From a bacterium (GTDB taxonomy: Bacteria > Oederibacteriota > JAAXVQ01 > JAUVAV01), in contig JAIORK010000050.1 in the NCBI GenBank assembly GCA_021108215.1, positions 10,498-74,497 on the forward strand: DNA of 64,000 bases, in the 5' to 3' direction. Position numbers and translations under genes: made by a program. Below, one piece after another: positions 13,753 to 62,961 of this stretch. The notes under the pieces are model-generated. The model searched no databases. It saw nothing but the letters and a program-made list of their open reading frames with translations, and had not been told where the DNA came from. Positions within the stretch are counted from its first letter, which is position 1. Each line of letters begins with the position of its first letter.

Positions 13753-13883
13753 ACCGAAGTATATTTTTAATCACTGCCGGCCTAATTCATAAAATATTCT
13801 GACCGGCTTTATCGCGTACTGTCTTTCTTAATTTTGACAAAATAATTTTTAAATATCATAACAGATTTCTTTCTTCGGAAAAA

Positions 13884-14690
13884 TTACTTTTCCAGGGATT
13901 TCAAAATTCCCTGTATTTTGTCCTGATATTCGTCTGAAGTGACATAATCCATGTCATTGTGCCCGCCATCATACGGCAACAGCATTTTAGGCGGAAGCGC
14001 ATTTTGATGCAATAACGAGGCGTGCCGGAAAGCAATCATATCATCATAACGCCCATGTATAATCAACTTGGGTGTTTTAATATGCCGGATTTTCCTGACA
14101 CTGTCATACTTTTGCTGCGTCAACCAGGACATTGGGAGAAAAGGATACATTTCCTTGGACACCTGTTCAACCGAGGCAAATGGACTTTCCAGAACCAGGT
14201 AGCCTACCGGATTATGCAGTGCCAGATCCACGATGACAGCGCACCCCAGCGACTTGCCGTAGACAACAATCTGTTGCGGATCAATGTTCCTTTCGTGAAT
14301 CAGATAATCGTAAGCTGTCTGCACGTCGCGATACAGTCCTTTTTCACTCGGGCGGCCTGTGCTCTTTCCATACCCGCGATAATCAAACATAAGTAAATTA
14401 ACACGCAGCTCCTTGAAAAACGCGACCCGATGCAGCCTGCCCGACATATTTCCGGCATTGCCGTGACAAAAAAGCACAGCTTGTTTTGATTTGGGGGATT
14501 TAATATACCAGGCATGCAGAATTTGTTTATCCGATGTTTTCAGAAAAACATCTTCATACCGCACCTTAATATCCTTCGGTGTTTCCTCAATCTCCTTTTT
14601 AGGAAAATAGAGGCCCTTTTGCTCAATCACAATCGCCAGAATTTTGGCAACCATGATGCCGAGGATGATAATCGCGAGAAAAGTAGTCAT
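13884..14690 (-). CDS. alpha/beta-fold hydrolase
   Basis: N-terminal TM anchor, HGNAGN oxyanion region, nucleophile elbow GKSLG, and later Asp/His residues. Confidence 0.8.
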   Translation of the reverse strand: MTTFLAIIILGIMVAKILAIVIEQKGLYFPKKEIEETPKDIKVRYEDVFLKTSDKQILHAWYIKSPKSKQAVLFCHGNAGNMSGRLHRVAFFKELRVNLLMFDYRGYGKSTGRPSEKGLYRDVQTAYDYLIHERNIDPQQIVVYGKSLGCAVIVDLALHNPVGYLVLESPFASVEQVSKEMYPFLPMSWLTQQKYDSVRKIRHIKTPKLIIHGRYDDMIAFRHASLLHQNALPPKMLLPYDGGHNDMDYVTSDEYQDKIQGILKSLEK

Positions 14691-14703: not shown

Positions 14704-14957
14704 GATAAAAATCCACGGGCTTACCCGGCATCCGGCATGCGCCGGACAAGTACGCCGGGCAGGCTGCCCGTGGTATTTTTGTCGGGAGATGTTCGCCCTG
14801 CCCCAAATACGGCAGGATGTCGCACCGATCTGCCGAAATATCAATTCGGTGCTCCACCTTCAATCGACGATATTTTTACTCGCTTCATCGATGGACTTAC
14901 CCGGCATTCGCCGGGCAAGCTGTCCATCGTGTTCGCGCTAGCACGATAACCAGGGTA
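14704..14957 (+). repeat. dispersed REP/MITE-like repeat, long copy (family core cccggcattcgccggg)
   Basis: Head gataaaaatccacgggcttacccggcatccggcatgcgcc and tail ccatcgtgttcgcgctagcacgataac match the copies at 59611-59766 (same orientation) and 61727-61840 (inverted). ORF-track entries 14644..14949 and 14702..14941 lie inside it and are treated as spurious. Confidence 0.7.
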
Positions 14958-14974: not shown

Positions 14975-15280
14975 TCACTTCGGCTTGGGCGATTTTCCCG
15001 TACCCCACAAAGGATCGTTCCCGAATTGCCGGCGGACCATTTCCTCGGGATTTTGCCGGTAAAATTCTTCTTGAGAGAATGCAAACCGGTATGCCCCCGT
15101 GTATTCCTGCAATATCCGGTAAGCGGTATTTATTTTCTGCATTTTCTCCGGCTCCTGCGCCCCTGCATCCGGATGATGCTGCTTTACCAATTCCCGGTGC
15201 CGGTCCTGAATTTCCGCGCGCGTAGCAGTTTCCCGAAGGCCAAACACTGCCAATGCAGCCTGCAACTCTTTATAGGTCAT
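14975..15280 (-). CDS. J-domain (DnaJ-like) protein
   Basis: The HPD motif (KQHHPDAG) within a J-domain-like helical region. 101 aa. Confidence 0.75.
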   Translation of the reverse strand: MTYKELQAALAVFGLRETATRAEIQDRHRELVKQHHPDAGAQEPEKMQKINTAYRILQEYTGAYRFAFSQEEFYRQNPEEMVRRQFGNDPLWGTGKSPKPK

Positions 15281-20252: not shown

Positions 20253-20294
20253 AGGAACTTGGGAGATCGTACGCGTCTCTTTAATATTTTTTAG

Positions 20295-20372
20295 AAATAA
20301 AAAACCCCGCACCTTTCGGTGCAGGGTTTTTTATTTCTGGCGAGGCCGAGTAGACGAGTTTCGCACCTGGGG
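20295..20372. repeat. R1: bidirectional terminator hairpin plus tRNA-Asp-3'-end-like segment (tggcgaggccgagtagacgagtttc)
   Basis: aaaaaaccccgcacctttcggtgcagggttttttatttctggcgaggccgagtagacgagtttcgcac. The same architecture recurs at 23527-23600 and 26510-26560. Confidence 0.65.
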
Positions 20373-20464
20373 CCGGACCTGTCCGGCGAATGCCGCATGA
20401 AATTGGCGGCTTAGTGTTGTCCCTGCCAAATCTAATGTGTCAGGTAAATACTGTCTCTGTACAT

Positions 20465-22529: not shown

Positions 22530-22621
22530 GTGAGCAAAGGCAAAAAATGGACATCGGAAGAAAAAATGGCAGCAGTTATGGAAGGGCTAAAAGGTCGGCC
22601 AGCTCGTGCTAGGGTCGAGTA
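22530..22621 (+). pseudogene. possible IS3-family-like transposase OrfA N-terminal remnant (frameshifted, 30 codons)
   Basis: Frame 1 reads VSKGKKWTSEEK and continues in the -1 frame as MAAVMEGLKGRPARARVE*. Joined across the 5-A run at 22561-22565, KKWTSEEK-AAVMEGLKG resembles the HTH_Tnp_1 N-terminus of IS3-type OrfA. The call is weak and rests on recollection of the family. Confidence 0.25.
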
Positions 22622-23231
22622 GCCCAGAGGCATCTCACTTCCAGGCTCTCACAGAACCGTACTTAAATCTCTCAATTCATACGGCTCTTACTGTTCGGCC
22701 ATTATGATTAACATAATGACTTGCTTCATGACTAAAGTTCCTCCGGTTTTTCAACAGTTGACAATAGTCACCAAGCTGAACAGTTCGGTCCCGCAGCGAA
22801 ACTTCCATTACAGAAGCTTCTTCACTACTACGAACCGATCGCCCCTATATCATGCCTTGGTACTCACAACCTAACACCGTGCTACGATGCTTGGATGGCT
22901 CCCTTTACATCATGATATAGGTTCCCACGTTCTCCGTAAAAGCCCGAACAGAGCTCATGCCACCTCTATGCCGGATGCCGCACAGCCAGTAAACACGTTT
23001 CCGCTATGCTTGTCCCAAGATTCCAGCAACACCTTGGTTTTGACATCATCATTTTGACTTTCGACACTTTATCAGTGGTTCACTTTCGTTCATCTTCTCT
23101 GTTCATACCTCACCTTGACGCTCACCACCATGTCTTTTGAACACAGCAGCTCAAGGCGGTTTGGCACCTGCTCGTGCAAGCCGATGCCGAAGGACCGACC
23201 CCTTCATCTCTTACGAAACTTCGTGGCACAC
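22618..23231 (-). mobile_element. ORF-less group II intron candidate (or 3' intron fragment) with canonical domain V
   Basis: The minus-strand sequence GAGCCGTAT-GAATT-GAGA-GATTT-AA-GTACGGTTC (plus 22653-22686) reproduces the domain V architecture. That comprises a 9-bp lower stem with the AGC triad and G-U pairs, a 2-nt bulge, a 5-bp upper stem and a GNRA loop (compare Ll.LtrB GAGCCGTATACTCCGAGAGGGGTACGTACGGTTCC). A D6-like helix AGCCTGGA...TCTGGGCT followed by AC lies 7 nt downstream. The candidate 5' GTGTG is at 23231. The 1.37-kb region 22376-23742 has no credible ORF. The boundaries are approximate. Confidence 0.6.
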
Positions 23232-23452: not shown

Positions 23453-23600
23453 ATTCACGAAAATCGAACAATAGAGCAGTTGAGCAGCAGACCGCCCTAA
23501 ACCACGTAGGGTTTAGGGCTTCAGAAATAAAAACCCCAGTCCTTATTGGACTGGGGTTTTTATTTCTGGCGGGGCCGAGTAGACGAGTTTCACAACTGGT
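23453..23600. repeat. R2: roughly 110-nt repeat (acgaacaatagagcagttgagcag...accgccctaaaccacgtagggtttagggcttcag), terminator hairpin and tRNA-Asp-3'-like segment
   Basis: Near-identical to 26451-26560 over about 110 nt. The hairpin is aaaaaccccagtccttattggactggggttttt and the tail is tggcggggccgagtagacgagtttc. Confidence 0.7.
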
Positions 23601-23742
23601 GCCAAGAAAAACCGGCTGCTCAAATTAGCTTTTACATATAGTGATCGTCCATTATTATAGACTGAATTAATTATTTTTATTTTATTTCATTGAAATAAAA
23701 CCTACACAAACCTAAAAAACCGATTTTCTCTCTAAGACTGCA

Positions 23743-26450: not shown

Positions 26451-26556
26451 ACACGAACAATAGAGCAGTTGAGCAGTAGACCGCCCTAAACCACGTAGGG
26501 TTTAGGGCTTCAGAAATAAAAAACCCCACACCGAAAGGTGCGGGGGTTTTTATTTC
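26451..26556. repeat. R3: copy of the R2 repeat plus bidirectional terminator, immediately 3' of tRNA-Asp
   Basis: acgaacaatagagcagttgagcagtagaccgccctaaaccacgtagggtttagggcttcagaaataaaaaaccccacaccgaaaggtgcgggggtttttatttc. Confidence 0.7.
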
Positions 26557-26633
26557 TGGCGGGGTTGACGAGGCTCGAACTCGCGACCTCCTGCGTGACA
26601 GGCAGGCGCTCTAACCAACTGAGCTACAACCCC
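26557..26633 (-). tRNA. tRNA-Asp (anticodon GTC), CCA encoded
   Basis: The minus-strand sequence GGGGTTGTAGCTCAGTTGGTTAGAGCGCCTGCCTGTCACGCAGGAGGTCGCGAGTTCGAGCCTCGTCAACCCCGCCA folds as a cloverleaf: acceptor GGGGTTG/CAACCCC, anticodon stem CCTGC/GCAGG, loop CTGTCAC, T-loop TTCGAGC. Confidence 0.9.
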
Positions 26634-29916: not shown

Positions 29917-30155
29917 GCTTCGGTCTCCTTGAATATCTCAATTGCCACCTCAGGACATACTAAGGCGCAGGCTTGGCAGCCGGTACAGCTATCTTCATCC
30001 ACACACGCGACGACACGAAACCCGGTTTTATTAATCTTCTCCGAAAACCGGATTATTTTTTTCGGACAGACTGCAATGCACATTTCACAGGCCTTGCATC
30101 GATCCGGATCAATTTTCAATCGAAAAGTCATAAAACCATCTCCTGATTCATACAA
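29913..30155 (-). CDS. 2-oxoacid:ferredoxin oxidoreductase delta subunit (2x[4Fe-4S] ferredoxin)
   Basis: 80 aa with two CxxCxxCxxxCP clusters (CKACEMCIAVCP, CTGCQACALVCP). Confidence 0.85.
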   Translation of the reverse strand: MYESGDGFMTFRLKIDPDRCKACEMCIAVCPKKIIRFSEKINKTGFRVVACVDEDSCTGCQACALVCPEVAIEIFKETEA

Positions 30156-30282
30156 TCAATTCGTCACGAAAAGACGTTTATACCTTCCTTTCGTGGGTTC
30201 AAGCTGATTTTGAAAGGATTTACTCTAGCATTGGGCCTGTGGACTGTCAAGAGCACGAGTAACGAAAATCACTTGAAAAGCA

Positions 30283-30708
30283 TTCACCGCCGAGGCGCTG
30301 AGGACGCAGAGAAAATCATTTAAAAACAAATATTTTACTGAATAATAACTATAACTATTTTGATTTTCTCTGTGTTCACCGCTGAGACGCTGAGAACACA
30401 GATGAAAATATTTATTATGAAAATCGCTTGTTAAAAAATATTAAATATAATTCAAACACTAACACCCTGTTACAAAGCCGGTCAAAATGCTTATTTTTAA
30501 AAGAAAAACCGGCACTGTCACCACATAACCAAGCAAGTTTTGACGATATGGCCCACGAAGGCTATACCTCTATTGATGATGTGTGTTTTTTCTTTAAAAA
30601 TAAGTATTCTGACCGGTCATAGCATCGTCTGTATTACTTAATTTGGACAAAAGTATAATTTAAACCTTCAAATATTGTGGTTTTCTCTGCGTCTTCAGCG
30701 TCTCGGCG
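30283..30708. repeat. three copies of a roughly 33-nt unit (caccgcCGAGgCGCTGAgGACgCAGAGAAAAt) in the oxidoreductase upstream region: two direct, one inverted
   Basis: 30283-30318 (+), 30376-30412 (+, within the imperfect palindrome gattttctctgtgttc...gaacacagatgaaaat), and 30673-30708 (-). Confidence 0.5.
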
Positions 30709-30716
30709 ATGAAATG

Positions 30717-35602: not shown

Positions 35603-36601
35603 CTACACCTCGCGTTCTGTTACGTAGTTTGCAATCGCCGTTAATGGCGCCGCCTTTTTCCCAAAAACTTTAAGCGCTGACAATCCCTTGGCAATAAGTG
35701 TCTCCGCATGTTTTTTAGATTCCTCCAGCCCGAACAGTGCCGGATAAGTCGCCTTGCCTCTGGCTTCATCTGTTCCCACACTTTTGCCAAGATCGCGCAT
35801 TTCTCCGATTACATTTAAAACATCATCCGATATCTGAAAAGCCAAGCCAATGGTCTCGCCATAGACTGAAAGTGCTTTCATTTTTTCAGATGACGCCTTG
35901 GCCAGACATCCCCCGATTTTAAGTGCCGCCTGAATCAGCTGCCCGGTCTTATGCGTATGAATATACTGCAGCATGGGCAGATTAATATCCTGGCCTTCTG
36001 CATCAATATCCGCCATCTGGCCGCCGACCATACCTGCCATGCCTGCTGCCTTGGCAAGAATACGCGACGCTGCTATGACTTGTTCCGCCTCATCCGCTTT
36101 TTTGGGAGAAAATTCCAATTTCCCCATCAGCTCAAACGCAAAGGTCAAAAGTGCATCCCCTGCTAAAATCGCGGCTGCTTCGCCGAAAATTTTGTGACAG
36201 GTCGGCTGCCCCCGACGCAGCGCATCATCATCCATCGCAGGTAAATCATCATGCATGAGTGAATAGGTATGGATGCATTCCAATGCACATGCCGCCGGCA
36301 TCACCGCTTGGGCCGTGCTCCCGCAAGCCTCCGCTGCGGCGATCACTAAAATCGGACGCAAACGCTTACCCCCAGAAAACATACTGTGCCGAACCGCAGC
36401 ATGCAATTTCGCCGGAAAATAATCCTTACGCGGCAAATAACGATTTAAGGCCTCGTCAACCAGCTTCCCCCGGGAAGCCAAATAGGTTTTTAGGTTAAAG
36501 TGGCTGTCATCTTTCACCAAGGACTTCTTTTTAACCGCCGCTTTCGTGACGGTTTTGCGAGATGCTCTGTTTGACTTAGAAGAGGCTTTCCTGATCTTCA
36601 T
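35603..36601 (-). CDS. ispA: polyprenyl (farnesyl/geranylgeranyl) diphosphate synthase
   Basis: The aspartate-rich motifs LMHDDLPAMDDD and the second DDxxD region. The start is uncertain. The 354-aa ORF-track start at 36667 would give a lysine-rich N-terminus that is the +1 frame of the xseB acidic tail. More plausible starts are the ATG near 36601 or the GTG at about 36532 (VKDDSHFNLKTYL). Confidence 0.8.
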   Translation of the reverse strand: MKIRKASSKSNRASRKTVTKAAVKKKSLVKDDSHFNLKTYLASRGKLVDEALNRYLPRKDYFPAKLHAAVRHSMFSGGKRLRPILVIAAAEACGSTAQAVMPAACALECIHTYSLMHDDLPAMDDDALRRGQPTCHKIFGEAAAILAGDALLTFAFELMGKLEFSPKKADEAEQVIAASRILAKAAGMAGMVGGQMADIDAEGQDINLPMLQYIHTHKTGQLIQAALKIGGCLAKASSEKMKALSVYGETIGLAFQISDDVLNVIGEMRDLGKSVGTDEARGKATYPALFGLEESKKHAETLIAKGLSALKVFGKKAAPLTAIANYVTEREV

Positions 36602-36971
36602 CTTCATCTTCGTCTTCGTCGCCTTCTTCATCTTCTTTGTCGCTTTCGTTTTCGTCATCGTCTTCATCCTCGTCTTCTACGATTTTTGAAGCGCTTGCGC
36701 CATTTAATTCATCTTCAAAAGGACGACTCCGCAGCTTAGTGCCTTTATCCTCGAGTAGTTCCACCTTGCGCTCGGCAGCCTTGAGCTGTGTTGAGCAGGT
36801 TCGCGCCAGACCGACCCCTTCTTCATACAGGGACAATGCTTTTTCCAGCGGCGCCTCGGCACCTTCCAATTGGTTCACGATCTCTTCCAGCCGTTCCAAC
36901 GCCTTTTCAAAAGATGGCGCCTTATTGGTTTCCACCTTGTTTTTCGTACTTTTTTGGATTTTCTTAGTCAT
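36576..36971 (-). CDS. xseB: exodeoxyribonuclease VII small subunit with an unusual roughly 45-aa poly-Asp/Glu C-terminal tail
   Basis: The core SFEKALERLEEIVNQLEGAEAPLEKALSLYEEGVGLARTCSTQLKAAERKVELL is XseB, followed by EDEDEDDDENESDKEDEEGDEDEDEDEDQESLF. Start assigned to MTKKIQ. Confidence 0.8.
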   Translation of the reverse strand: MTKKIQKSTKNKVETNKAPSFEKALERLEEIVNQLEGAEAPLEKALSLYEEGVGLARTCSTQLKAAERKVELLEDKGTKLRSRPFEDELNGASASKIVEDEDEDDDENESDKEDEEGDEDEDEDEDQESLF

Positions 36972-46024: not shown

Positions 46025-46142
46025 TCATTGCCTCCATCGTATCAACCCGTTCATTCAATTTCCCCGCTCTGAAAATCGGGGATTTGGATATAATCTGTAA
46101 AAAACCATTATGACTGTCCCGCTTCAGCCCCGGTTAAAAACC

Positions 46143-46180
46143 GAACCTGCCCGGCGAATGCCGGGTGCCGGGAAATTCGC
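46143..46180. repeat. partial copy of the REP-like family core (cccggcgaatgccgggtgccggg)
   Basis: It matches the core of the copies at 14704, 59611 and 61727; another fragment is at 20372-20398. Confidence 0.5.
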
Positions 46181-46187
46181 GGTTGAT

Positions 46188-47060
46188 CTATAAAAAACTC
46201 TTCTCAAGGAATTTGATGCGTTCCATAACGTCATTGATTATCCAATCGGGTGTTGACGTCCCTGCCGTCACACCGACGTGATTCATCTTTTCCAGCCAGC
46301 TACCCTGAATCTCATCCGCTGTTTCAATATGATAAGTCTGCACACCTGCTGTGCGGCTTATCTCCGCCAAACGCGAGGTGTTGGCGCTGTTACGACCACC
46401 CACCACCAGCATTATATCCACCTCTTTGGCAAGCATCTGTGTTTCAGCCTGTAAATCAGTGGTGGCATTACAAATCGTATTCATCACTTTGAGCGTTGTC
46501 GTGCGCGTCAGTAAAGCACTGGTCACTGCCTGAAGATTCTCAAGACTCTGGGTTGTCTGCGCAATCAGTCCATACTTGCTTTTCCGCGGCAACGCAACAA
46601 CTTCTTCTGCACTGCTGATCACCAAAGCAGCACCTTTCACCGCTCCTAAGATGCCTTCCACTTCGGGATGGGCTGCATCACCTAAAATCAGAAGATCATA
46701 GCCTTGTTCCACCAGCTCCTTGGCCAGTTTATGCGCCCGCTGCACAAATGTACAGGTTGCATCTACAATAGACAGTCCTCGGGCGGCCGCTTCTTCCAAT
46801 ACATCGGGTGATACGCCATGAGAACGAATGATTATAACACCCTTTGATATCTCGCTCAAGTTTTTAACAGCAAAAACACCTTCCTTTTCAAGCTTTTCAA
46901 CCACTTGCGGGTTATGAATAATCGGTCCCAATGTATGAATGGCATCATGTCCCGATTCGGCAGTCTCAAAGGCTTTTTTCATCGCAGCCTTAACTCCAAA
47001 ACAGTGACCTGCATGTTTGGCAAGTGTGATTTTCACAAGCCTACCTCTTTTTCTTTTCAA
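46188..47060 (-). CDS. ispH: 4-hydroxy-3-methylbut-2-enyl diphosphate reductase
   Basis: GHCFGVKAAMKKAFE and the conserved Cys/His ligands. 290 aa. Confidence 0.9.
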   Translation of the reverse strand: MKRKRGRLVKITLAKHAGHCFGVKAAMKKAFETAESGHDAIHTLGPIIHNPQVVEKLEKEGVFAVKNLSEISKGVIIIRSHGVSPDVLEEAAARGLSIVDATCTFVQRAHKLAKELVEQGYDLLILGDAAHPEVEGILGAVKGAALVISSAEEVVALPRKSKYGLIAQTTQSLENLQAVTSALLTRTTTLKVMNTICNATTDLQAETQMLAKEVDIMLVVGGRNSANTSRLAEISRTAGVQTYHIETADEIQGSWLEKMNHVGVTAGTSTPDWIINDVMERIKFLEKSFL

Positions 47061-55995: not shown

Positions 55996-57050
55996 TACTC
56001 TCCTGCAGGATCATCTTTTTCCATTTCACTTTGTTGACCGGATGTTTTTTTTTCTTGTTCCAATTCCCCAGCCTGTATCTCGGCAGTCACGATTTCCTCA
56101 GCATGCGCGTGATCATCATTGTGCCCATTGCCGTCTTCCGGATGTGGTTCTTCTTCCAGCTCTGATAAATTGACGTTGTCATCTTCATCAGCTTCATCTT
56201 CATCCGTTTCATCTTCATCCGTTTCATCTTCATCCGTTTCATCTTCATCAGCTTCGTCTTCATCCGTTTCATCTTCATCAGCTTCGTCATTCTCTTTAGA
56301 TGGATCTAACTCTATATCCGGCTTGCCATTACCGCTGTCATCGGCAACGATTTCATTTTCTTCCGCAGATGCTCCCACATCTGACTGGGATACTTCCGGT
56401 TGCTGTTCAGACTCCGCAGCCATGGTCTGCTCCTCGTCCGCTTCGCCTTCTTCGCCAACTTTGACTTTGGCAATTAATTCTCCCTGTTGATTCATTTCCC
56501 AGGCCTGGCCGGCATCATCCGACTCTAAAATATCCTGTAAATCTTTGAGCATGGGCATATCCGTGAGGTCCTTAAGCCCGAAATAGTGCAAAAATTCTTT
56601 GGTGGTGCCATAAAGAATTGGCCGACCTATAACTTCCTTACGTCCGACAATACGTATAAATTTTCTGTCCAGCAGCGCATTGACAACTCCGTCAGCTGAA
56701 ACACCCCGGATATCCTCAATCTCAGCCTTGGTGATGGGCTGACGGTAGGCAATAATCGCGAGTGTTTCCAAAGCCGCGCGCGAGAGTTTATTACTCGTGC
56801 GTGTCTTGAACATTTTTCGAATCCAGGGAGCATACTGTACACGGGTCGCCAATTGATAGCCTTCCGCGATTTCCACCAAGTGAAACGCTCTTCCCTGCAT
56901 ATCATATTCAGCCTTCAATTCATCCAGGCACGCCAGAACCGTTCGGCGGTCCACATCTTCCAGCAGTCCCTGCATAACACCCAAGGACATGGGTTTGTCA
57001 CCCACAAACAACAAACACTCAATAATCGCTTTAATCTCTTTTTGTTCCAT
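55995..57050 (-). CDS. scpB: segregation and condensation protein B with a roughly 170-aa poly-acidic C-terminal extension
   Basis: The ScpB winged-helix core (IIECLLFVGDKPMSL...), then DEADEDETDEDETDEDE... repeats. Confidence 0.85.
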   Translation of the reverse strand: MEQKEIKAIIECLLFVGDKPMSLGVMQGLLEDVDRRTVLACLDELKAEYDMQGRAFHLVEIAEGYQLATRVQYAPWIRKMFKTRTSNKLSRAALETLAIIAYRQPITKAEIEDIRGVSADGVVNALLDRKFIRIVGRKEVIGRPILYGTTKEFLHYFGLKDLTDMPMLKDLQDILESDDAGQAWEMNQQGELIAKVKVGEEGEADEEQTMAAESEQQPEVSQSDVGASAEENEIVADDSGNGKPDIELDPSKENDEADEDETDEDEADEDETDEDETDEDETDEDEADEDDNVNLSELEEEPHPEDGNGHNDDHAHAEEIVTAEIQAGELEQEKKTSGQQSEMEKDDPAGE

Positions 57051-59610: not shown

Positions 59611-59766
59611 GATAAATATCCACGGTCTTACCCGGCATCCGGCATTCGCCCCCGCATACGCGGGGCAAGCTGGGCAAGTACACCGGGCAGGCTGCCCCGA
59701 CCTGATAAATACTATTTCTTTGGGATGCTATCGCAGCCCATCGTGTTCGCACTGGCACGATAAAAC
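59611..59766 (+). repeat. REP/MITE-like repeat copy (same family as 14704-14957)
   Basis: gataaatatccacggtcttacccggcatccggcattcgcccccgcatacgcggggcaagctgggcaagtacaccgggcaggctg...cccatcgtgttcgcactggcacgataaaac. Confidence 0.7.
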
Positions 59767-59945: not shown

Positions 59946-60566
59946 TCAATTCCAGGAAGAAAAATGCTTCAGTATTGTTCGGATTGCGTCTTCATGGCCT
60001 GTCCCAAAAAAAAGCAGTCCTTTTTCATGGCCGCCCATAATAACCGTCCCGCCTTTGAGAACATTACGATCACTTATCAAGGCGGCAATCGCGCGTGCCA
60101 TTTCCGGTGTTCCATAGGTTGCCTGGGAAGACGTGGTGGGCAGTACATTCCGGTATTTTTCCCACATCCCTTGATGATGTATGTGAATCACGTTGGAAAT
60201 ACTTTGAAACTGACGGTAAATGTATGCATGCGTCATGGACTCAGAGGAAGCCTGGATGGGTCCCTGACAGTCAAGCCGGTTTTCTTCCAGATCAAATCCA
60301 ACCACCCGGGTTACATGTTCGGATGCAATAGATACCAGATGACCCGTCTGGGTTCCGGTAACAATGAAGTCATCTGTTTTGTCAATCCGCAGACTGACAT
60401 TGCCGTACCCGATCCCGGCTGAATCCACACCCACCAAACCTTTGGCAAGCAACCGGCTGCGGATGGCATCCATGGCTTTCCACGGCCAGGCAGTATCTGC
60501 CCTGGTTTTGGTCCAGTGGCAATTAAATTTTAAAACACCTTCTCTGGGTTCCGGCATCGAACTCAT
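59946..60566 (-). CDS. class II aldolase/adducin family protein (MtnB-like methylthioribulose-1-phosphate dehydratase candidate)
   Basis: The fold-family His cluster (IHIHH) and size; it is translationally coupled to mtnA. Confidence 0.55.
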   Translation of the reverse strand: MSSMPEPREGVLKFNCHWTKTRADTAWPWKAMDAIRSRLLAKGLVGVDSAGIGYGNVSLRIDKTDDFIVTGTQTGHLVSIASEHVTRVVGFDLEENRLDCQGPIQASSESMTHAYIYRQFQSISNVIHIHHQGMWEKYRNVLPTTSSQATYGTPEMARAIAALISDRNVLKGGTVIMGGHEKGLLFFGTGHEDAIRTILKHFSSWN

Positions 60567-61687
60567 CGGTGGTCGGGATAAAGACTCAGGATACTTCTTT
60601 CTTCCGCCTCACAGACTCCCCGCTCCGTAATCAATCCGGTCACAAGATGTGCCGGGGTCACATCAAATCCGTAATTAGCGACCGGACTACCCTTCGGGGT
60701 CAACAATACCTGTTTGATTTCCCCGTCGCATACGCCCTGAATCTTCCTGACTTCTTCCCCGCCCCGTTCTTCAATGGGAATTTCCTGCAACCCATTGCGC
60801 ATGGTCCAGTCAAATGTGGAAGACGGCAGCGCGACATAAAAAGGAACCGTATTATCTTTGGCAGCCAGTGCTTTTAGGTAGGTCCCGATTTTATTGGCCA
60901 CGTCACCTGTCCGGGTCGTGCGGTCACTCCCCACGATCACCATGTCAACCATCCCGTGCTGCATCAGGTGACCGCCGGCATTGTCCACAATCACGGTGTG
61001 CGGAACATGATGCTGTCCCATTTCCCAAGCGGTGAGACGCGCACCTTGGTTCCAGGGGCGTGTCTCATCCACCCAGACATGCACCGGGATGCCGGCATCG
61101 AACGCAGCATAAATCGGTGCGGTTGCTGTTCCATAATCAACACATGCCAACCAACCGGCATTGCAATGCGTAAGAATGTTGACCGGCTTCCCGTCCTTGG
61201 ATTCGCTGATTTTCCTGATAATATCCATACCATACCCGCCAATCTTCCGGCATGCGTCCTCTTCCTTAAGTGCAATGGCAATGGCATTGCTCATCGCAAG
61301 CGATTTTTTCTCACCCAGGTCATTGCCTTTGGCTATTTTGGAAAACTGTAAATCAACCGCCCAGGCCAAATTCACTGCAGTAGGACGTGATGCTTTCAGT
61401 TTTTCAGCGGATTCCATCACAAAAGCATCAAACCGGTCGGCCGGCGCTTCCAATGTGGCAATATACATCCCATACGCCGCTGCCACACCAATCAAAATCG
61501 CACCGCGAACATGCATCTCCCCGATAGCACGCACAAAATCATCGACCTGTTTTAATTCCTCAATTACAAACGCATGCGGTAGACGTGTTTGATCAATAAT
61601 AAATACCGTATCTTTTTTCCGGTCATTGAGCCAGATGGTCTTCGTCGCTTTCCCATTAACTTTCATCACTTCCTCCAGGTTGATCAA
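60563..61687 (-). CDS. mtnA: S-methyl-5-thioribose-1-phosphate isomerase (eIF-2B alpha/beta/delta-like)
   Basis: 374 aa with the MtnA-family motifs (VFIIDQTRLP, HCNAGWLA, VGSDRTTRTGDVANKIGTY). Confidence 0.85.
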   Translation of the reverse strand: MINLEEVMKVNGKATKTIWLNDRKKDTVFIIDQTRLPHAFVIEELKQVDDFVRAIGEMHVRGAILIGVAAAYGMYIATLEAPADRFDAFVMESAEKLKASRPTAVNLAWAVDLQFSKIAKGNDLGEKKSLAMSNAIAIALKEEDACRKIGGYGMDIIRKISESKDGKPVNILTHCNAGWLACVDYGTATAPIYAAFDAGIPVHVWVDETRPWNQGARLTAWEMGQHHVPHTVIVDNAGGHLMQHGMVDMVIVGSDRTTRTGDVANKIGTYLKALAAKDNTVPFYVALPSSTFDWTMRNGLQEIPIEERGGEEVRKIQGVCDGEIKQVLLTPKGSPVANYGFDVTPAHLVTGLITERGVCEAEERSILSLYPDHR

Positions 61688-61726: not shown

Positions 61727-61840
61727 CTATTTATCGTGCCAGCGCGAACACGATGGACAGCCTGCCCCGCGAACTTGCCCAGCTTGCCCCGCGTATGCGG
61801 TGGCGAATGCCGGGTGCCGGGTAAGCCCGTGGATTTTTAT
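61727..61840 (-). repeat. REP/MITE-like repeat copy in inverted orientation (minimal roughly 115-nt form)
   Basis: Its reverse complement reads gataaaaatccacgggcttacccggcacccggcattcgccaccgcatacgcggggcaagctgggcaagttcgcggggcaggctgtccatcgtgttcgcgctggcacgataa. Confidence 0.7.
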
Positions 61841-62946
61841 TTCTTCTTAGAAAAATTTTCAGAAAGCATTTCAAAAAGCAGCGCCTCTGTCACCGTATAG
61901 GGATTATTCATATGATTGTGTGAATGAATTGCCTTGGCAGCATAGCATTTTTGTTCTTCTTGGGTCAGGACTATTTTTTTTGGAAAAATTTTTCCCAAAA
62001 AAACCTGAAATGCTCCCCAGTGTTCCAGGCGCAAAAGACTCAAAACCCGGTTGGCCTTGCTGCTCACGCTTGCGCATCGCTTCATCTGGCTGGTTAAAAG
62101 ATACCCATTGGCCCGTCCATGGGGTATCTTTTTATGATACGTCAAGGGATATCCCAAGGCATGCACGGTTGCGGTTCCGGCGGTTGCGATCACCATCCCC
62201 CCCAGTGTGGATGCCAGCATGAGCTTTTCCCGTACCCCTCGGTTGATATCCTCGTGCTCCAGATTGAGCATACATTCGCGAAAAATTTGAAGTCCTTTTT
62301 CAGCCAGGGTATCGGTTAAAACATTGGCTTTTTTTGAAATGTACCCTTCCAAAAGATGCGAGAGCGCATCAATTGCGGTATCCAGGGTAATGGCCCACGG
62401 GAGATCCAGTGTATAGACCGCATCAACCAACGCCAGCTGGGGAAATGTATAATAGCCGGCAAATGCCCTTTTGGACCCTTTCCTTTGATCTGTCAACACG
62501 CCATACGGTGTTACTTCGGTTCCGGTCCCCGCCGTAGTGGGTATTGCCACAATGGGCAACGCCGGTGTCAAATAGTCCATCGTATACAATTGTTCCGGTG
62601 CCATACCGGGATTTGCCATCAGGACGGCCATGGCCTTGGCCGCATCAATGGCAGAACCACCGCCTACCCCGACAACCACGCTTACCGCTGCTGCGCGTCC
62701 ACAGGCCGCACCGTTTTCCACGGTTTCAAAGGAAGGATCCGGTTCAACGCCGCAAAACAATTCATAACCTAAATCGGCCTTTGCCAGACTTTTTTTCAAA
62801 TCATCCAGGGAACCGTTTTTCGCTGCCGAAGTTTTACCGGTTACCACCAGTGCTTTTTTTCCAAACCGCGTCCATTCCTTGGTTTGCGCTGTCACACAAT
62901 GATTGCCAAAAAACAGTCGCGTCGGATTATAAAATTGAACAGACAT
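61837..62946 (-). CDS. iron-containing alcohol dehydrogenase
   Basis: GGGSAIDAAKAMAV and the His metal ligands (HALGYPLTYHKKIPHG). Start assigned to MSVQFYNP. Confidence 0.85.
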   Translation of the reverse strand: MSVQFYNPTRLFFGNHCVTAQTKEWTRFGKKALVVTGKTSAAKNGSLDDLKKSLAKADLGYELFCGVEPDPSFETVENGAACGRAAAVSVVVGVGGGSAIDAAKAMAVLMANPGMAPEQLYTMDYLTPALPIVAIPTTAGTGTEVTPYGVLTDQRKGSKRAFAGYYTFPQLALVDAVYTLDLPWAITLDTAIDALSHLLEGYISKKANVLTDTLAEKGLQIFRECMLNLEHEDINRGVREKLMLASTLGGMVIATAGTATVHALGYPLTYHKKIPHGRANGYLLTSQMKRCASVSSKANRVLSLLRLEHWGAFQVFLGKIFPKKIVLTQEEQKCYAAKAIHSHNHMNNPYTVTEALLFEMLSENFSKKK

Positions 62947-62961
62947 CAAGCCGCCTCTCAC

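Follow-up and report, generated by a model that had tools for sequence, protein, structure and literature searches.

The spacer near 14.7 kb of the window (i.e., the whole stretch of DNA analyzed here, 64,000 nucleotides in length) contains a sequence that recurs at other positions, which raises the question of what kind of repeat it is and how it came to be dispersed. A preliminary description had proposed a repeat family and named REP/BIME-type elements, MITEs, and a structured small RNA as candidate identities. We found that the repeats are a real, dispersed, multicopy, noncoding, and hairpin-forming family, so that this part of the proposal stands, but none of the three identities fits cleanly and the repeats are probably nonautonomous mobile DNA. 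The family is specific to one species or lineage and is chromosomal, its host being an uncultured bacterium of the Goldbacteria/FCPU426 type. It has not been described before; its kind, the small gene-less bacterial repeat, is familiar. Our best reading, to which we give a probability of roughly 70%, is that the repeats are a nonautonomous DNA element that has inserted many times at ATAA in a single lineage through a trans-acting enzyme with the head and tail as its substrates.

Repeat copies in the window

Direct reading and alignment of the window confirmed three full copies sharing a head and a tail, as had been claimed, with refined limits that are a few bases tighter than those given earlier. 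Two additional fragments had been reported. The one at 46143-46180 was significant in the nhmmer search and extends over 46142-46188, and the one at 20372-20398 was not significant. The copies and their surroundings are as follows.

14705-14949, plus strand: copy 1, full, long form, 245 nt (by reading, alignment, and nhmmer). It is composed of a head (14705-14720), a GC hairpin unit (14721-14765), module X (14766-14900), a second GC unit with an exact palindrome (14900-14915), and a tail hairpin (14922-14949). Its neighbors are a DnaJ-domain gene (14975-15280, minus strand), on the side of the stop, and an alpha/beta hydrolase gene (13884-14690, minus strand), on the side of the start, and it is antisense to both.
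59612-59763, plus strand: copy 2, full, 152 nt, with a head, GC units including CCCCGCATACGCGGGG, module Y (~45 nt), and a tail. It lies between the start of an M50 peptidase gene (59555) and the end of a class II aldolase gene (59946), antisense to both.
61731-61840, minus strand: copy 3, full, 110 nt, with a head, GC units, and a tail. Its neighbors are an Fe-ADH gene (61837-62961) and mtnA (60563-61687), and it is in the sense orientation.
46142-46188, minus strand: decayed or partial copy, with a GC hairpin unit and a degenerate head and without a tail (nhmmer E = 9.5e-6). It directly follows the stop of ispH, upstream of rpsA, and contains an exact palindrome (46150-46165).
20374-20399, minus strand: doubtful fragment, having GGCATTCGCCGG in common with a GC unit (nhmmer E = 0.15, no statistical support).

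The three full copies share the head ATAAAAATCCACGG(G/T)CTTACCCGGCA(T/C)CCGGCAT and the tail CCATCGTGTTCGC(G/A)CT(G/A)GCACGATAA, and an nhmmer profile built from minimal copies recovered them with E values of 3e-23 to 1e-12. The motif CTTACCCGGCAYYCGSC occurs five times in the window against 0.09 occurrences expected, a number reached by none of 100 shuffles, and the exact palindrome CCCGGCATTCGCCGGG, for which 0.01 occurrences are expected in the window, is found both in copy 1 and in the partial copy, at the positions given above. A hairpin described as common to the full copies is present as CCCCGCATACGCGGGG in copy 2 and as the variant CACCGCATACGCGGGG in copy 3, but it is absent from copy 1. 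The statement that all copies are intergenic holds in the window, although the gene upstream of copy 3 has its TAA stop within the element's head and one copy elsewhere is situated inside a coding sequence. In total, 26 of the 27 copies that we collected are outside genes, and 1 of the 27 is intragenic.

Host, copy number, and lineage restriction

The existence of more copies genome-wide, on which the proposal of a family depended, was confirmed by a metagenome scan. The scan returned 18 loci, 15 of which carry elements of the same build, the other 3 being chance matches. The true loci come mostly from the JGI Ga0255xxx series and have GC contents of 0.43 to 0.51, against ~0.6 for the three chance matches. 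With the window and the other contigs of the same organism taken together, the number of distinct copies is 27, i.e., ~23 beyond the window's 4. An 838-aa secretin is 100% identical between JGI Ga0255438 and the ENA sample ERZ26872907, and the latter also includes a 5.5-kb contig with 99.7% identity to the window near 14.7 kb, on which copy 1 is unchanged. Because the identical 838-aa protein links both sets and the GC content also matches, the JGI contigs and the window are attributed to the same organism. The nearest named relatives are from "candidate division FCPU426," which is the candidate phylum Goldbacteria (PMC7031533), and a gene order of >15 kb is common to an FCPU426 genome and a contig of this organism.

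Six copies are present in ~104 kb of DNA not selected for the repeat (the window, L040, and L042, minus the copies by which L040 and L042 were retrieved), corresponding to a density of ~1 per 17 kb. At the observed density, a ~3-Mb genome would contain one or two hundred copies; a published Goldbacteria metagenome-assembled genome is 2.89 Mb in size (PMC7031533). At four places (L002, L035, L038, and L039), Logan unitigs end within the element, as expected because multicopy repeats break de Bruijn graphs, and the family thereby explains the fragmented short-read assemblies of this organism.

No copy was found in the syntenic DNA of three related species (~75 kb in total), including orthologous spacers and the ortholog of the VWA gene that is interrupted in the present organism. 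This set consisted of L032 and L046 (MtnA 79% identical), L043 (the FCPU426 genome), and the ENA contigs L044, L045, and L033. At a density of ~1 per 17 kb, the probability of zero copies in ~75 kb is ~0.012. A scan of representative-genome contigs with CTTACCCGGCAYCCGGCAT, in a collection without this species, gave 11 unrelated chance matches (Streptomyces, Paracoccus, and others), a scan of viral contigs with the tail pattern gave 0 matches, and blastn searches with two copies against plasmids and against Escherichia coli genomes gave no match. The family is usable as a marker for strain typing and for contig binning in a poorly known candidate phylum.

Anatomy and folding of the element

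The element consists of a 16-nt head (ATAAAAATCCACGGGC), a variable cargo, and a 28-nt tail hairpin (GTCCATCGTGTTCGCGCTGGCACGATAA), and the order of its parts is constant in all full copies. The head has the pattern ATAAAAATCCAC-N-GGC, where N is hypervariable, and is followed by the linker TTAC. The cargo is made up of 0 to 4 GC-rich hairpin units (CCCGGC-ATTC-GCCGGG, CCCGC-ATAC-GCGGG, and GGGCA-GGC-TGCCC) and, optionally, module X or Y. That the GC units are related was judged by eye, and TRF did not score them as a tandem array. Module X (~135 nt), found at six loci, starts with an inverted head copy (GCCCGTGGTATTTTTGT) and ends with CATCGATGGAC, an inverted copy of the tail start; it also includes two further hairpins with conserved stems and variable loops. 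Module Y (~45 nt) is found at three loci (copy 2, L018, and L019). The tail, with the pattern G(T/C)CCAT(C/T)GTGTT-CGCGCT-(G/A)GCACGATAA, folds into an 8-bp hairpin. The elements range from 43 to 247 nt in length, with no gene inside, and in the shortest one (43 nt; L023 9764-9806) the head is joined straight to the tail, leaving a single hairpin. The preliminary description had ascribed the variation in length to internal insertions. The lengths do differ, but what differs are recurrent modules that reappear at other loci rather than random insertions. The copy ends are 87 to 89% identical among copies, a level from which the expansion may be old.

A search for terminal inverted repeats, as recommended earlier, was negative: the head (ATAAAAATCCACGGGC) shows no match to the tail in reverse complement (TTATCGTGCCAGCGCG), and only a short CACG..GG box is common to the two. 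The MITE reading does not fit cleanly, as head and tail do not form an inverted pair and no parent insertion sequence (IS) was found among the loci retrieved.

The folding data bear on the idea that the family is a functional RNA or a cis-regulatory family (a small RNA, a terminator or attenuator, or mRNA-stabilizing hairpins) kept by selection. As single-stranded DNA, the long form (copy 1) folds far better than its shuffles (z = -4.86), the head pairing with its internal inverted copy, and the stems of the X-module hairpins are kept while the loops vary. Besides, one terminator-like motif is located within the long form, and many copies are in operon spacers, where they are necessarily cotranscribed. 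However, no advantage over shuffles is seen for the short forms (z = -0.71 for copy 3 and -1.49 for copy 2), and the sole terminator-like motif is antisense to the adjacent genes. In the tail hairpin, 96% of cells are paired with G-T counted, and all variation is one-sided and wobble compatible on the top strand. No pair shows double-sided, compensatory changes, and the shuffle control matched the tail hairpin in this respect, which indicates conservation only. No relevant Rfam match was obtained either at the gathering score or at E values up to 10, a promoter and terminator scan gave nothing above shuffle expectation, and one copy is within a coding sequence. Orientation is random with respect to transcription: relative to flanking codirectional genes, 9 copies are sense and 8 are antisense, so that no orientation bias is seen. 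We consider it highly improbable that the repeats are such an RNA family, and a function at the RNA level is unlikely to be the reason for their existence; the cotranscribed hairpins may affect mRNA locally. Head position 13 seemed to covary with the tail (A with T in L014, L023, and L024), but this signal was dropped, since it is not independent of subfamily descent.

Ends and insertion site

All 19 full copies (19/19) have ATAA at both ends, with variable outer flanks. Outside the ATAA, G is enriched at -1 and A at +1 and +3 (A is next after ATAA in 13 of the 19), and the junctions read G-ATAA-A on both sides. A tandem pair in L017 (...CACGATAAAAATCCAC..., the junction also being given as ...GGCACGATAAAAATCCAC...) has one ATAA common to both elements. 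Furthermore, of the nine copies in sense orientation, three have a left ATAA whose bases 2 to 4 form the TAA stop of the gene upstream, and in the window the Fe-ADH gene ends in this way on bases 2 to 4 of the ATAA of copy 3. Such sharing of stop codons could also come from insertion just inside the 3' end of a gene.

A target-site duplication, for which a check had been suggested, is in accord with the ATAA at both ends, with the ATAA shared in the tandem pair, and with a net length of 156 nt for the in-frame insertion described below. Nevertheless, a 4-bp duplication is not proven, and there is no sign of current activity, because six independent assemblies of the organism all carry the same copies and none of them offers a DNA-level empty site. 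The assemblies compared include ENA ERZ26872896, ERZ26872904, and ERZ26872907 and Logan SRR15668623 and SRR32473248; L047 is 99.9% identical to the window.

We propose that the element spreads at the DNA level and that an enzyme supplied in trans would recognize its head and tail via the CACG-containing boxes common to both. Insertion at ATAA would leave an ATAA on each side, which would be a 4-bp duplication or else the shared core of a recombination event. Insertions would fall mainly in AT-rich spacers and at TAA stop codons and would occasionally be tolerated in frame within a gene. Once in place, the element would add stable hairpins to any transcript crossing it.

The same ends might also be explained by an IS200/IS605-like element of the PATE type, which would insert 3' of ATAA without duplication, have the same tetranucleotide at its right end, and use the tail hairpin as the structure recognized by a Y1 transposase. 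Such an element is in keeping with the lack of inverted terminal repeats, with the fixed tetranucleotide that borders the left end and closes the right one, with the single ATAA in the tandem pair, and with a tail hairpin tolerating only wobble-compatible changes of the top strand. The top strand, judged from local GC skew, is on the C-rich strand in 18 of the 27 copies, as would also be expected, but this 18:9 bias is not significant (p = 0.12) and several of the copies are linked. Moreover, elements of this type have similar subterminal hairpins at both ends, recognized on one strand, but here the head is without a conserved tail-like hairpin, only the tail having one; the 43-nt copy has one hairpin only, and no Y1 transposase was seen in 383 kb with approximate queries. 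Taken with these objections, an IS200/IS605-like origin seems improbable to us.

As to the strand composition of the window itself (1-64000), the GC skew is strongly negative throughout, ranging from -0.09 to -0.31 per 2 kb, and nearly all long open reading frames (ORFs) are on the minus strand. Because of this uniform skew and the strand of the ORFs, the window is placed wholly on one replichore, with its genes co-oriented with replication. In a separate case, two JGI assemblies of one locus (L018 3046-3439 versus L028 8878-9382) differ by the inversion of a ~500-nt segment in which an element copy is located. The inversion junctions are not at the element ends, and the inversion is either real or a chimera produced in amplification or assembly.

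Search for a mobilizing gene

A RAYT or another transposase had been suggested as a gene to look for. None was found among the window ORFs or in 383 kb; for the latter, tblastn with three only approximate Y1 sequences, which is a weak test, revealed no Y1/RAYT-like ORF. The 64-kb window contains housekeeping genes only (for example, rpsA, ispH, dxs, recN, aro genes, scpAB, and mtnA), and neither a RAYT nor any other transposase or integrase is among them. When 92 ORFs of the JGI loci were compared with PHROGs, the matches listed (25 of 49 families) included no transposase or integrase. A parent IS was also sought among the retrieved loci, and neither a longer element with the same ends nor a repeated segment of >300 nt was detected. 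A cognate RAYT gene typically has inverted REPs on either side, but the two window copies in opposite orientation, near 59.6 and 61.8 kb, flank mtnA and the class II aldolase gene, and the idea of a RAYT between them was rejected.

These results are of direct relevance to a REP/BIME system, in which a RAYT (REP-associated tyrosine transposase, of the Y1 HUH type) would act on the GC hairpins as REP units, cutting and copying them in single-stranded form, and the composites would be BIME-like mosaics. Indeed, the GC units are short, GC-rich, imperfect palindromes, mostly extragenic and variable in number per site, and one of them stands nearly alone at 46142-46188. A conserved GTAG or CGTC tag at one end of the palindrome defines the two REP superfamilies (PMC3733652), whereas no conserved GTAG/CTAC or CGTC/GACG at a fixed position was seen in any of 20 copies. 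In addition, the hairpins are nearly always inside a unit with fixed nonpalindromic ends, and E. coli genomes, in which REP, BIME, and ERIC sequences occur, showed nothing similar to the copies. With the placement of the two inverted window copies and the outcome of the weak search for a Y1/RAYT-like ORF also against it, a REP/BIME system has little probability in our view.

Copies in and beside coding sequences

The preliminary description had mentioned spurious ORFs called inside the copies. This was not borne out, as public gene calls leave the element-bearing spacers empty, and when the translated element was compared with 5.8 billion proteins, two matches only were obtained, a secretin and a VWA/BatA protein.

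In the second of these, a 160-nt copy (L042 10564-10723, minus strand) is situated inside the VWA/BatA coding sequence and is read in frame. The protein (P0128; 407 aa) has 52 extra residues, ...AVNRLLDY[RASANT...PVDFY]RGPEV..., and the insert is placed in a variable loop that separates the conserved NRLL block from the conserved ILATDG block. Because all nine orthologs (347 to 363 aa), including the FCPU426 one, are without the insert, the insertion in P0128 is derived. The reading frame is kept, which fits a net gain of 156 nt if ATAA was duplicated, although a net gain of 159 nt would keep the frame too.

In the PilQ-type secretin (P0127), the annotated start is just outside an element copy (L040 9455-9659), and the first ~70 residues are translated repeat. 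A signal-peptide-like stretch begins only after the translated repeat, and the annotated start codon is probably miscalled. The family is thus a source of annotation errors, namely, the N-terminal extension of the secretin and the 52-residue insert in the VWA protein.

A bolder form of the proposed mechanism would be a recombinase or nuclease working in a manner undescribed for small bacterial repeats. Such an enzyme would recognize the CACG boxes, need no inverted ends, exchange strands in a shared ATAA core, be specific to a branch of the Goldbacteria, and graft peptide segments into proteins. We regard this version as doubtful.

Relation to known small repeats

For a nonautonomous element inserting at ATAA, the closest behavior is that of bcr1, BOX, and the Rickettsia palindromic elements (RPE). 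The likeness appears to be one of behavior and architecture only, and no family membership is claimed. The bcr1 repeats (group A of the Bacillus cereus repeats) are ~155 bp, noncoding, stem-loop forming, and dispersed, with positions not conserved between relatives and without terminal inverted repeats; they have a fixed TTTAT direct repeat at their flanks, and a mobility resembling site-specific recombination has been proposed for them (PMC6542083, PMC3184786). The present elements are likewise small, gene-less, stem-loop forming, and dispersed, and the ATAA(A) at both ends is the reverse complement of the (T)TTAT of bcr1. On the other hand, the host belongs to another phylum than the Bacillus cereus group, to which bcr1 is restricted, and the present family is far more modular (43 to 247 nt). 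Furthermore, bcr1 is transcribed and has compensatory changes, whereas the present family shows no compensatory changes.

The BOX elements of Streptococcus pneumoniae have a constant 5' module, variable internal modules, and a constant 3' module, cover a wide size range, and are nonautonomous (PMC3184786). By architectural analogy only, the boxA-(boxB)n-boxC order resembles that of a head, 0 to 4 GC units and/or X/Y, and a tail in all full copies. The internal units of the present family differ from those of BOX in being short GC hairpins too divergent to score as a tandem array; in addition, the ends carry ATAA, and no candidate mobilizing IS is known.

RPE are listed as palindromic repeats of ~100 to 150 bp (PMC3184786). 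Unlike RPE, the present family has an intragenic position in 1 of 27 copies only, the remaining copies being in spacers. RPE reportedly can occupy in-frame positions within genes and lengthen the encoded protein by a stretch of peptide (Ogata et al., 2000), and in this respect the copy that adds 52 residues to the VWA protein is similar.

The resemblance to REP/BIME/REPIN is in the GC-rich extragenic hairpins, the many copies, and the mosaic combinations, and the difference is in the missing GTAG/CGTC tag, the RAYT that was not found, and the fixed nonpalindromic ends. The elements are also similar to MITEs (Correia/NEMIS, RUP, ERIC, and Nezha) in size, noncoding nature, high copy number, and a short AT-rich repeat at both ends, and similar to ERIC in having larger variants through internal insertions. 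Unlike classical MITEs, they have ends that are not mutual inverted repeats, an inverted head copy only inside the long form, and no parent IS among the loci retrieved. The family is therefore one more small repeat without terminal inverted repeats and with a fixed AT-rich boundary, like bcr1. Nothing in it overturns present understanding, and it is of mild interest for a design that is modular, bounded by ATAA, and free of terminal inverted repeats.

Other features of the window

The window contains several additional repeats and structured sequences. On the minus strand at 22614-23203, Rfam models matched group II intron domains D1-D4 (23097-23203, 81 bits) and D5/D6 (22614-22689, 57.8 bits). 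This looks like an ORF-less mini group II intron, because the domains are ~590 nt apart, with no room for an intron-encoded protein.

Three terminator-like hairpins (20290-20374, 23519-23603, and 26509-26564) have stems with compensatory differences, and each is followed by TGGCG(A/G)GG. The first two include a 35-nt stretch resembling a tRNA 3' end, and the third runs into a tRNA-Asp gene (26557-26633). Together they bracket a gene for a T9SS-tail protein with the mini intron, and a lysine-2,3-aminomutase/GNAT gene pair. It is possible that these three hairpins are att-like duplications that arose from integration events.

In the 800-nt spacer upstream of recN (29917-30716), nested inverted repeats are found at 30283-30318/30678-30713 and 30478-30509/30585-30616. 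A 62-nt stretch of this spacer (30602-30663) is 71% identical to 13792-13853, and each of the two has a TTGACA...TATAAT-like motif on the plus strand. This pair is a second repeat or regulatory motif, unrelated to the hairpin family.

Finally, in-frame 9-nt and 15-nt periodic repeats (TCATCTTCATC..., plus strand) are located at 36589-36681 and 56149-56318. Read on the minus strand, they encode acidic Asp/Glu-rich tracts in a polyprenyl synthetase-like gene and the ScpB gene.
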